DNA of 14,205 nucleotides from a virus (taxonomy: Duplodnaviria > Heunggongvirae > Uroviricota > Caudoviricetes): IMG/VR virus record IMGVR_UViG_2541047928_000015, one strand, 5' to 3'. Positions within the stretch are counted from its first letter, which is position 1; each line of letters begins with the position of its first letter. This document shows, in pieces, positions 1 through 3,928 of the stretch. Position numbers and translations under genes: made by a program. The notes beneath the pieces are model-generated. The model ran no database searches. It was not told the origin of the DNA and saw nothing but the letters and a program-made list of their open reading frames with translations.

Positions 1-462
1 ATGACGGCGAAAACAGCACCGAAAGTCACGCTGTGGGAGTTCTTCCAGCAGTTAGGCAAAACCTTCATGTTACCCGTGGCATTATTGTCGTTCTGCGGCA
101 TTATGCTCGGCATTGGTAGTTCTCTTAGCAGCCATGATGTCATCACCCTGATCCCGGTCCTGGGCAACCCCGTGTTGCAGGCTATCTTTACCTGGATGAG
201 TAAGATTGGCTCGTTTGCTTTTAGTTTCCTGCCAGTCATGTTCTGTATCGCCATCCCGCTGGGTCTGGCACGCGAAAACAAAGGCGTAGCGGCATTCGCT
301 GGCTTCGTCGGTTATGCGGTAATGAACCTCGCGGTAAACTTCTGGTTGACCAATAAAGGCATTCTGCCAACCACGGACGCCGCAGTTCTGAAAGCCAATA
401 ATTCACAGGTGTTTTTTCCCATCCTGTGGTTTCCTTGGCGTTTTCTAGGTTTTTTCAGATAG
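1..462 (+). pseudogene. malX: PTS system EIICB component, glucose/maltose family (MalX-like), N-terminal ~135 codons only; frame then runs into unrelated sequence and stops after 18 more codons
   Basis: Translation MTAKTAPKVTLWEFFQQLGKTFMLPVALLSFCGIMLGIGSS... reads as the N-terminal membrane domain of a PTS EIIC protein and matches my recollection of E. coli MalX. An EIIC domain needs ~350 aa, so a 153-aa product is truncated. The C-terminal 18 residues (SQVFFPILWFPWRFLGFFR) are not transporter-like. Sequence character changes at about nt 406. Confidence 0.55.
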
Positions 463-823: not shown

Positions 824-1002
824 TGCATAAGATAGTTTGCAGTTGCCACTTCAGCTTGCGCCATAAACCGCCTGATTTTTGCCGCCATCTGTTAGCATTC
901 CTGTATACCTGAAACGACAATGTTTATCTACGAACTTTAAGAACACCCAGGATAAAAATTGTCAACTATATCATATATAACACATTACTAATTCGAGGCT
1001 AT

Positions 1003-1116
1003 ATGAACAGCATACTGATAATCACTTCGCTCCTTATCATATTCAGCATTTTTAGTCATGCTCTAATAAAATTAGGGATTGGCATATCCAATAACCCAGA
1101 CAAAACCGATGTATAA
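1003..1116 (+). CDS. Hypothetical 37-aa hydrophobic peptide ([37 protein letters not shown]): one predicted TM helix plus polar C-tail
   Basis: ATG at 1003 preceded by GAGG (995-998); TAA at 1114-1116. Below the ORF-track size cut-off, so found by hand. AT-rich DNA yields Ile/Leu/Phe-rich ORFs by chance, hence low confidence. Confidence 0.3.
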
Positions 1117-1184
1117 GTCAACATATCCTGAATCAGACATACAATATCGCAATGAAAATCAATAATATTTTAAGGAATATATTC

Positions 1185-1418
1185 ATGAAATCAAAAGACA
1201 CCCTAAAGTGGTTCCCTGCGCAGCTTCCTGAAGTCAGAATTATCCTAGGGGATGCTGTAGTGGAAGTAGCAAAACAGGGAAGACCTATCAATACCAGAAC
1301 ATTGCTTGATTACATTGAAGGAAACATAAAGAAAAAATCATGGCTGGATAACAAAGAATTATTACAAACAGCGATATCAGTTCTTAAAGACAACCAAAAT
1401 TTAAATGGTAAAATGTAA
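1185..1418 (+). CDS. Hypothetical small protein, 77 aa from the SD-preceded ATG (88 aa if upstream ATG at 1152 is used)
   Basis: ORF track 1152..1418. The internal ATG at 1185 is preceded by AAGGAA at an 8-nt spacing, whereas the 1152 ATG has no SD. Very AT-rich coding sequence. I recognise no family. Confidence 0.45.
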   Translation: MKSKDTLKWFPAQLPEVRIILGDAVVEVAKQGRPINTRTLLDYIEGNIKKKSWLDNKELLQTAISVLKDNQNLNGKM

Positions 1419-1734: not shown

Positions 1735-2325
1735 ATGTCTCGAATTTTTGCTTACTGTCGGATATCAACGCTGGATCAGACCACCGAAAATCAACGCCGG
1801 GAAATCGAAAGTGCAGGTTTTAACATCAAATCTCAGCAAATAATCGAAGAACACATTAGCGGCTCAGCAGCAACCAGTGAGCGTCCTGGTTTTAACCGGT
1901 TGCTTGCTCGCCTGAAATGTGGTGATCAATTGATTGTGACAAAACTGGATCGCCTTGGTTGTAATGCAATGGATATCAGGAAAACAGTGGAACAACTGAC
2001 CGAAACAGGTATCAGAGTGCATTGCTTAGCATTGGGGGGCATTGACCTGACCAGTCCAACAGGAAAAATGATGATGCAAGTAATTTCAGCAGTCGCTGAA
2101 TTTGAACGAGACCTTTTACTTGAACGCACTCATTCCGGGATAGTAAGAGCCCGCGGCGCAGGGAAACGTTTTGGTCGACCACCTGTGTTAAATGAAGAAC
2201 AGAAACAGGTGGTATTCGAACGAATTAAGTCAGGTGTAAGTATAAGTGCCATTGCCCGGGAATTCAAAACCTCGCGGCAAACCATTTTAAGAGCCAAAGC
2301 AAAACTTCAGACACCTGACATATAA
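1735..2325 (+). CDS. Serine recombinase of the resolvase/invertase family (Pin/Hin/Gin-like), 196 aa
   Basis: N-terminal catalytic motif YCRISTLDQ (Ser10), DRLG motif, E..ER acidic patch, GRPP linker and C-terminal helix-turn-helix. Position beside the tail fibre genes is the classic Pin location in e14/Rac-type prophages. Only about one-third identity to Gin/PinE by eye, so invertase versus resolvase is unresolved. Confidence 0.9.
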
Positions 2326-2887: not shown

Positions 2888-3928
2888 TTATTTAGACGCA
2901 AGCGTCGCCTCAATTGCAGATAATCTTTGCCTTAATTCTGCGTTTTCTTCTTCCAGTACTGTTATTCTGTCGTCTGACTCTCTGGCTACCTGAACAAGCA
3001 AGCCAGTAACACCAGAATAATCTACTGTGTAATAACGTTCACCTTCTTCACCTTCCGATCCGCTTGCACCGTCCTGATATTTCATTGCGGAACCGACAAC
3101 TTCTGGGATTGCTTCCAGAGCTTCCTGTGCAATGACACCTGCATAGGGCATACCGTTTTCTTTAAGCGTGTATGTATAGCCGTTCATTTTACGGATGCGG
3201 TCGGTTGCATTATCGATCACCTGAATGTTGTCTTTCAGATCCCGGTCGGAATGCTGGTTAAATGCGGTGGCATGACATGCACCATTAACGCTTAACATAT
3301 AGGTGTTATCGGTATTTTTCTGCGCATAGAACATATACGCGCCACCATCAGCACCAACTTCATATACAACCGGACGGGTAGAGTTACCCCACAAACTAGT
3401 AGTAGCGCCAGAATGAGCGGTCCCCTGTGTGTTTAATGTCATGGTTGACCCATGATTGGCATATTTGATTTGTAATGTGTCTGTGCAGTCAAACTTAATA
3501 AGCGCGTTACTTCCCCGCACACCATACGACATGAGACAGTTCCCCATCTTAAGGTAACCATCACTGCCTGGAAAAATTAATGTTCCGCCGTAAAGATCGC
3601 TAAAATCCCAAAAGATACCTTTTGTTCCATTGTGTGTGACAATCCTTGTCATTGTATCTTTTGTACCGTCAATATTTTTTCTGGTGTACATCTCACTATA
3701 AGCGTTTTCGGTTTCTCCTGTCTTATTTGACAAGTGAATCTTACCGCTAAATATAGTTCCAGTGGTCGGCAATGCCTTTTGATCATAGATTACATTGCAA
3801 TAACTATTCCATGTTGTTTTATTGTCTACATATGATTTTGTTGCATAGCTTCCTTGATCAGTTTTTAGTTTACTAACATCGGATTTTAGCGTTTTGATGT
3901 CATCAGGAATTACTGTTTTTGTAACCAT
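2888..3928 (-). CDS. Tail fibre / tail spike-like protein with C-terminal intramolecular chaperone auto-processing domain (peptidase S74-like), 346 aa
   Basis: C-terminal ~120 aa (SDRDLKDNIQVIDNATDRIRKMNGYTYTLKENG ... ITVLEEENAELRQRLSAIEATLASK) has the hallmark S-D-x-x-L-K-x-N-I start and terminal coiled coil of the self-cleaving chaperone domain found in phage endosialidases and the T5 L-shaped fibre. GGAG SD 9 nt upstream of the ATG, lying inside the end of orf89. Lower GC than the J gene. Confidence 0.8.
   Translation of the reverse strand: MVTKTVIPDDIKTLKSDVSKLKTDQGSYATKSYVDNKTTWNSYCNVIYDQKALPTTGTIFSGKIHLSNKTGETENAYSEMYTRKNIDGTKDTMTRIVTHNGTKGIFWDFSDLYGGTLIFPGSDGYLKMGNCLMSYGVRGSNALIKFDCTDTLQIKYANHGSTMTLNTQGTAHSGATTSLWGNSTRPVVYEVGADGGAYMFYAQKNTDNTYMLSVNGACHATAFNQHSDRDLKDNIQVIDNATDRIRKMNGYTYTLKENGMPYAGVIAQEALEAIPEVVGSAMKYQDGASGSEGEEGERYYTVDYSGVTGLLVQVARESDDRITVLEEENAELRQRLSAIEATLASK

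Follow-up and report, generated by a model that had tools for sequence, protein, structure and literature searches.

The two short open reading frames (ORFs) studied here lie on one strand of a 14,205-nt stretch of DNA from a virus of the Caudoviricetes (IMG/VR record IMGVR_UViG_2541047928_000015; hereafter the window), and they encode a 37-aa hydrophobic peptide and a 77-aa protein, 68 nt apart near a prophage end. The original prediction regarded them as a two-gene small-protein module of the prophage accessory region, proposed a toxin-antitoxin, abortive-infection or anti-defence pair, recognised no family for the 77-aa product and allowed that both ORFs might be chance ORFs. We found that the module exists exactly as described, and that it is the ynfT (ynaM)-ydfK (ynaE) pair, a known feature that appears in the annotation of thousands of genomes. 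Thus, the observation was confirmed, while its interpretation was only partly supported: the module is real, and the function proposed for it is not supported.

The identity of both genes is firm. The 37-aa peptide is 100% identical to K-12 YnaM of the Rac prophage and to YnfQ, now YnfT, of the Qin prophage, and its scores exceed the curated cut-offs of both family models, namely Pfam PF23676 (YnaM; 96.2 bits with a cut-off of 27, E 6.5e-28, full length 1-37) and NCBIfam NF041477 (YnaM_YnfT; 63.9 bits with a cut-off of 35, E 1.2e-17). As had been described, it is a membrane-type peptide with one hydrophobic helix and a polar tail. The 77-aa protein does belong to a recognised family: its identity to proteins annotated as cold shock protein YdfK is 99-100%, all of its homologues carry PF27475, and it matched phrog_2718 over its full length (E 1.8e-47 over 1-77), which places it in the YdfK/YnaE family. 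The PF27475 assignment was read from the annotation of the homologues, as the Pfam copy used for the profile search has no PF27475. At the DNA level, 851 bases around the pair matched 2,807 of 5,426 complete E. coli genomes, and the RefSeq labels at the 100%-identical matches were "ynfT: YnaM/YnfT family protein", "ydfK: cold shock protein YdfK" and pinQ. The K-12 pairs ynaM-ynaE (Rac) and ynfT(ynfQ)-ydfK (Qin) are the same genes, with an identical 37-aa peptide and a 99-100% identical YdfK, and they share the gene order, the spacing and the neighbouring pin invertase with the window. The prophage end differs, abutting a truncated malX here, but ydfJ (Qin) or ttcA/ttcC (Rac) in K-12.

Both ORFs are conserved in a Salmonella prophage that retains the pair (locus L002). 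The ratio of non-synonymous to synonymous substitution rates (dN/dS) against this copy was 0.106 for ynaM (12 synonymous and seven non-synonymous differences) and 0.085 for ydfK, compared with 0.8-6 in the two off-frames. The ORFs are about 82% identical and ungapped between E. coli and Salmonella, whereas the flanks and the spacer are 48-66% identical with many gaps, and the YnaM tail ISNNPDKTD is invariant. Judged by this substitution pattern, both ORFs are shown to be genuine genes under purifying selection rather than chance ORFs. Within the spacer, two blocks are kept with respect to Salmonella, ACAT(A/T)TCCTGAAT and AAAAT..AATATTTT(A/G)AGGAA, including the ydfK ribosome-binding site; the Shine-Dalgarno sequence previously noted before the 77-aa ORF is present.

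The products of these genes have been detected in other studies. Synthesis of the identical K-12 YnaM and YnfQ was observed with a chromosomal sequential peptide affinity (SPA) tag (PMC6001520; 10.1101/511675), and tagged YnaM in ordinary LB cultures of K-12 reached higher levels than most newly found small proteins (10.1101/511675). For the ynfT copy in the window, translation is supported indirectly by its low dN/dS and by its Shine-Dalgarno sequence. YdfK has been detected by top-down mass spectrometry (MS) with a mass of 8772.78 Da (PMC5594050). A longer ORF of 88 aa, starting at ATG 1152, encloses the 77-aa ORF, and this form is annotated in phage Tritos. The calculated monoisotopic mass of the 77-aa protein with its methionine, 8772.80 Da, matches the measured mass, and the upstream ATG is missing in Salmonella; therefore the 77-aa start is real and the 88-aa start was ruled out. 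Lack of conservation and lack of translation would have refuted the original prediction, and for both genes the opposite was found.

We then examined the fold of YdfK. Its "cold shock protein" label is an expression pattern and not a fold: no Pfam match to the cold-shock domain (CSD) was obtained at E<=1, and the predicted fold is all-helical. The AlphaFold2 model, made with 12 family members, has four helices (pLDDT 78.8, pTM 0.65). A Foldseek search with this model ranked 2oxl_A, the YmgB structure (PDB 2OXL), first (probability 1.00, TM 0.82 by target), and the next match had a probability of 0.41; no significant match was identified among the viral folds of BFVD. From the predicted model we concluded that YdfK has the AriR/YmgB fold. 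When the YdfK profile was compared with all PDB sequences, 2oxl was again the best match, at only E 0.3, with LGxAVxxhxxxGxxhN as the aligned motif. The NCBIfam YcgZ model also picked up YdfK, at E 0.012 and well under its cut-off. The hhalign comparison of the YdfK family with the YcgZ/YmgA/AriR family gave a probability of 84% (E 7e-6, 58 columns); among 200 controls with shuffled columns, three scored as high as the true comparison, and reversing the alignment gave a probability of 2%. Taken together, YdfK is probably a remote homologue of AriR/YmgB. Our literature search found no paper linking YdfK to AriR/YmgB, the co-mentions being gene lists, and we consider the relationship a modest new lead.

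YcgZ, YmgA and AriR (YmgB) are small cytoplasmic "connector" proteins encoded beside bluR and bluF. Cold and blue light induce these proteins, and their mode of action is to bind signalling proteins of the host. As a dimer, YmgB binds SpoT through a contact for which R74 is essential, and this binding raises ppGpp; YmgB separately activates the Rcs phosphorelay, independent of SpoT binding (PMC10704370) and without need for RcsF (PMC11451591). While the YcgZ/YmgA/AriR genes are located in the chromosomal BluR-controlled ycgZ-ymgABC operon, YdfK is prophage-borne.

Published data also cover expression in the cold. YdfK protein has been shown to be made at low temperature: YdfK and YnaE were detected in colonies after refrigeration by top-down MS (PMC5594050), and YdfK was present in NudC pull-downs at 16 °C and not at 37 °C (literature on the low-temperature accumulation of identical or near-identical proteins: PMC5594050, PMC10654059, PMC12890032). 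In uropathogenic E. coli (UPEC) shifted from 23 to 37 °C, YdfK protein drops together with BluF/BluR while its mRNA is unchanged. At the RNA level, the ydfK and ynaE mRNAs move with cspB/F/G/H/I, and in one RNA-seq experiment ynfT (5.7x) and ydfK (5.3x) went up together with cspB, cspG, cspI, deaD and rhlE. A cluster of predicted Fur sites is centred at +8 of the ydfK start (PMC2189734), RNA polymerase and H-NS binding were reported in the region, and an H-NS mark lies at ydfK/ynaE (PMC3946193).

The sequence scan predicted no terminator between or after the two genes. A candidate internal ydfK promoter, TCAACA-16-TACAAT, is present in the spacer at 1118-1145, and its -10 element is not kept in Salmonella. 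An Rfam search at E<=1 on both strands of 1003-1418 returned no RNA family, and the RNA fold of 960-1215 was no more stable than that of shuffled sequences (z +0.5). For the leader, we considered and rejected both a cspA-like RNA thermosensor and a cold box, with no Rfam match and no match of the cold-box pattern TGACGTACAGA near the module; overall, matches to this pattern were no more frequent than chance.

Where the two genes occur bears on whether they work as a pair. Members of the YdfK family are few and restricted to Enterobacterales, with 30 representatives at E<=1e-3 among 1.84 billion proteins and 66 loci in the species-level genome set; the few matches in non-enterobacterial metagenome-assembled genomes are 99-100% identical to E. 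coli and were therefore treated as contamination. By DNA search, the cassette was also found in viable lambdoid phages, namely Tritos, HannyBb, Turner, Kati, 2H10 and the PhiR series. Tritos and 10 other phage records share the order int-attP-ynaM-ydfK-pin-tail fibre. The longer gene order in phage Tritos, exo-xis-int-(attP)-ynaM-ydfK-pin-tail fibres, indicates the classic accessory position at the prophage end. In complete E. coli genomes, ynfT occurs at 3,378 places and ydfK at 3,371, in the same 2,803 of 5,426 genomes. The copies are all >90% identical over one 851-bp cassette; since they all belong to this one cassette, their co-occurrence is weak evidence of coupling.

Beyond E. coli and Salmonella, YnaM-like peptides (in which a hydrophobic helix leads into [IV]SNNxD and an acidic tail) adjoin YdfK homologues of 55-60% identity on the same strand. 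They lie upstream of ydfK in Superficieibacter and Pantoea eucrina, and downstream in Pantoea sp. BRM17, an uncultured enterobacterium and Raoultella sp. Two YnaM-like peptides from other lineages match the Pfam YnaM model at E 1e-4 and 1e-3. The Superficieibacter pair occupies a prophage-end position, with the host gene thrS on one side and a tail-fibre gene on the other; the pair of the uncultured enterobacterium is near an integrase. At least five further lineages have a divergent YnaM-like peptide beside a divergent YdfK homologue, and both gene orders occur. Descent from a single cassette would by itself hardly account for this, which suggests that the ynaM/ydfK pairing recurs more often than by chance. 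The occurrence of YnaM without YdfK was assessed within the E. coli genomes only, and a 40-aa padded YnaM query returned almost only E. coli entries plus one noisy variant on a 1.3-kb contig.

Some 15-20 residues N-terminal to the SNNxD tail, all YnaM-like peptides also carry a small-x-Ala motif (SHA, SYA, SVA, IVA or ALA) and, directly after it, L/V-x-K/R (YnaM residues 18-23, with the small-x-Ala site before L21). This motif could be a signal-peptidase-like site or merely the end of the membrane helix.

Based on these results, we propose that the ynfT-ydfK pair is an accessory ("moron") lysogenic-conversion cassette, cold-responsive and expressed in the lysogen, in which YdfK is an AriR-like modulator; our confidence in this proposal is evenly divided. 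The cassette, with attP on one side and the genes for the Pin invertase and tail fibres on the other, would be expressed in the lysogen when cold. YdfK would not be an enzyme, a toxin or an RNA chaperone, but would act by protein-protein binding, given its remote homology to connectors that bind host signalling proteins, and would retune host stress or envelope signalling on cooling. YnaM/YnfT would be a single-pass membrane peptide from the same cassette, either working with YdfK at a membrane-bound target or having an independent membrane role. We infer the connector mechanism of YdfK and the cooperation between YnaM and YdfK.

The analogy for YnaM is one of general architecture. Like MgrB, SafA and AcrZ, which are small membrane-protein regulators of E. 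coli, and like DrpB, YnaM is a single hydrophobic helix of <50 aa; as with such regulators, it is encoded beside a stress-regulated gene and made at detectable levels, although it shares no sequence similarity with any of the four. DrpB is a small protein that activates Rcs (PMC11451591).

Several points weigh against the proposal. The profile-profile match between YdfK and YcgZ/YmgA/AriR is only moderately significant, the sequence identity is about 15%, and YdfK is outside PF10798 by that family's own thresholds: it had no PF10798 match at E<=1, and the NCBIfam YcgZ model (NF040640) gave it 15.9 bits where the cut-off is 80. By an alignment-dependent mapping, YmgB R74 aligns with an invariant Thr of YdfK, so that the same SpoT contact by YdfK is unlikely. 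The co-transcription of ynfT and ydfK is inferred. Finally, a YnaM-like ORF is absent within 3 kb at about 50 of the 66 species-level YdfK loci, so that YdfK does not in general need YnaM for its function and clearly works without it in most lineages.

This last result favours the possibility that ynfT and ydfK are two unrelated accessory genes on one mobile DNA, with YdfK acting alone and YnaM an independent small membrane protein, e.g. one that excludes superinfecting phages or that modulates a transporter or sensor of the host. That the E. coli copies belong to a single cassette is in line with it, their co-occurrence not being independent evidence. However, the divergent YnaM-like peptides beside divergent YdfK in further lineages, and the joint rise of the ynfT and ydfK mRNAs in the RNA-seq experiment, argue in the opposite direction. 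We regard this explanation as possible, on balance rather unlikely.

The proposal can be taken further, to a phage-encoded temperature-gated "connector" device expressed as the lysogen leaves the warm host, in which YdfK, possibly recruited or assisted by YnaM, would bind the Rcs phosphorelay (RcsC/RcsD), SpoT or another sensor and would switch envelope, biofilm or stringent physiology for the benefit of the prophage. We hold this version as a speculative and unlikely one.

A different mode of action for YdfK would be that of a Hha/YmoA-like or DNA-binding nucleoid modulator, adjusting the H-NS-dependent, temperature-dependent silencing of genes. The original YmgB structure paper reportedly noted a resemblance of YmgB to Hha, and some records label YdfK "predicted DNA-binding transcriptional regulator". 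YdfK is a small helical protein of low temperature, encoded in H-NS-bound, AT-rich, horizontally acquired DNA (PMC3946193). Nevertheless, the fold searches gave no support, and YdfK showed neither an Hha-type fold nor an Hha-type sequence match, which leaves this mode of action improbable.

We also considered that the 37-codon ORF is mainly a translated leader (an upstream ORF): in the cold, its translation would control how stable the ydfK message is or how well it is translated, and the peptide would be a by-product. The distance of 68 nt to ydfK, the shared strand, the lack of a predicted terminator, the change of UPEC YdfK abundance with temperature at unchanged mRNA, and the unstructured AT-rich RNA of the region would all fit. 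But the peptide itself is under purifying selection with an invariant tail, tagged YnaM is stable and abundant, and no cspA-type thermoregulator or other Rfam element was found; moreover, in the Pantoea loci L083 and L064 and the Raoultella locus L073 the YnaM-like ORF is downstream of ydfK and therefore cannot act as a leader there. A leader function as the main role is thus quite improbable.

The last candidate is the one originally put forward, a type I-like or holin-like membrane toxin with YdfK as its antidote, or else an abortive-infection or anti-defence pair. Its attraction is the architecture, a peptide of <40 aa that has a hydrophobic helix and ends in a polar tail, and after it, still within the accessory region of a prophage, a small cytoplasmic protein; the likeness to Hok, Ldr, TisB and PepG1, short hydrophobic peptides with a polar or charged C-terminus, stands at this superficial level, whereas the toxin-family match does not (PepG1, E 0.055, 13.1 bits with a cut-off of 70). 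Type I antitoxins are RNAs, not proteins, while the ynfT neighbour encodes a protein; and with no Rfam antisense RNA and no terminator-like site in 1003-1418, no excess of minus-strand promoter-like hexamers (seven, against 4.5 +/- 1.9 in shuffles), no PADLOC-DB 2.0 family at E<=1 for either protein, YnaM at high levels in healthy growing K-12 cultures, which is unlike a repressed toxin, and a YdfK that has no YnaM partner in most lineages and is induced by cold instead of being constitutively protective, we consider a toxin or defence function highly improbable.

The features of the locus are collected in Table 1. The accessory position between the prophage end and the recombinase, here a Pin-type invertase with the tail-fibre genes located past it, was borne out, as was the low GC content of the module (31-36%, compared with about 52% in the flanking malX fragment).

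Table 1. Positions of the annotated features around the ynfT-ydfK module in the window
Feature	Coordinates	Strand	Basis
malX (phosphotransferase system (PTS) maltose IICB), 5' part; host gene cut by prophage insertion	1..401	+	NCBIfam PRK10110, residues 1-139 of 530-position model
Probable junction or attachment (att) core; overlap of malX and prophage-end homologies	389..401	.	Sequence matches
Shine-Dalgarno-like GAGG, 4 nt 5' of the ynfT ATG	995..998	+	Sequence; kept in Salmonella
ynfT/ynaM, 37-aa small protein	1003..1116	+	Pfam PF23676, NCBIfam NF041477, identity to K-12 YnaM/YnfQ
Spacer, 68 nt; holds ydfK ribosome-binding site AAGGA 1172-1176	1117..1184	+	Alignment with Salmonella
ydfK, 77-aa cold-induced cytoplasmic protein, predicted four-helix AriR/YmgB-like fold	1185..1418	+	
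Pin-type serine DNA invertase (pinQ/pinR-like); bounds the module	1735..2325	+	Pfam Resolvase E 1e-36 and HTH_7; RefSeq pinQ

The homology to intact malX, which ends at 401, and the homology to the Qin-type prophage end, usually beside ydfJ (389/390-1000), overlap by about 13 bp, and by these matches the overlap is a probable att core or host/prophage junction. The malX junction was found in only one of the 5,426 complete E. coli genomes, and the insertion looks like a rare or secondary integration site. On the plus strand, 5' of the invertase, a promoter-like TGTACA-16-AATAAT is present at 1648-1675, which is the pinQ/pinR "constitutive promoter" of a genomic SELEX list (PMC3946193). Two sub-threshold Rfam matches lie outside the module on the minus strand. 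One, to the E. coli intergenic small RNA (sRNA) candidate IS009, covers the whole model at 2457-2617, between the pin invertase and the tail-fibre genes (67.4 bits with a gathering score of 117, E 2e-14). The other, a weak match to the Shigella chromosomal sRNA CssrB at 646-783, between the prophage end and ynfT (28.7 bits with a gathering score of 76, E 0.003), is probably shared prophage-end sequence and not a validated RNA.

The neighbourhoods of YdfK homologues elsewhere showed further recurring genes. In 37 of the 66 loci (within L027-L084), the homologue is convergent with a gene for a 2,860-aa GH94/glycoamylase protein (cyclic beta-1,2-glucan-synthase-like), and in 32 of the 66 a divergent gene for the zinc-ribbon protein YnfU lies about 130-170 nt upstream. 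Near-identical copies are present in many genera as well as on a Pantoea plasmid (L037), a pattern that suggests an island spread by horizontal transfer. In the Enterobacter loci L006-L009, GnsA/GnsB-family and YnfU genes, small genes carried in K-12 by the Qin prophage or belonging to the cold-shock set, were identified within a few kb of the YdfK homologues, which hints at a recurring neighbourhood of small cold-associated genes. In the Salmonella prophages (L002/L003, 3143-3765) there is a second YnaE-like paralogue of 70 aa, which has about 30% identity to YdfK and is followed by an overlapping 137-aa ORF with no Pfam family, directly upstream of the ynaM-ydfK pair.

The module should be labelled as the known ynfT-ydfK pair, and not as a candidate toxin-antitoxin or defence locus. 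Its second gene, ydfK/ynaE, is recurrently listed among the cold-shock-induced genes of E. coli and is present in about half of the sequenced genomes of this species. If the connector device is real, YdfK would be the first mobile-element member of the YcgZ/YmgA/AriR superfamily, and one of the orphan E. coli genes with the strongest cold induction would gain a function. The structural link to AriR/YmgB makes the function of ydfK/ynaE directly testable, and it also suggests that prophages can plug into the low-temperature signalling network of their host.

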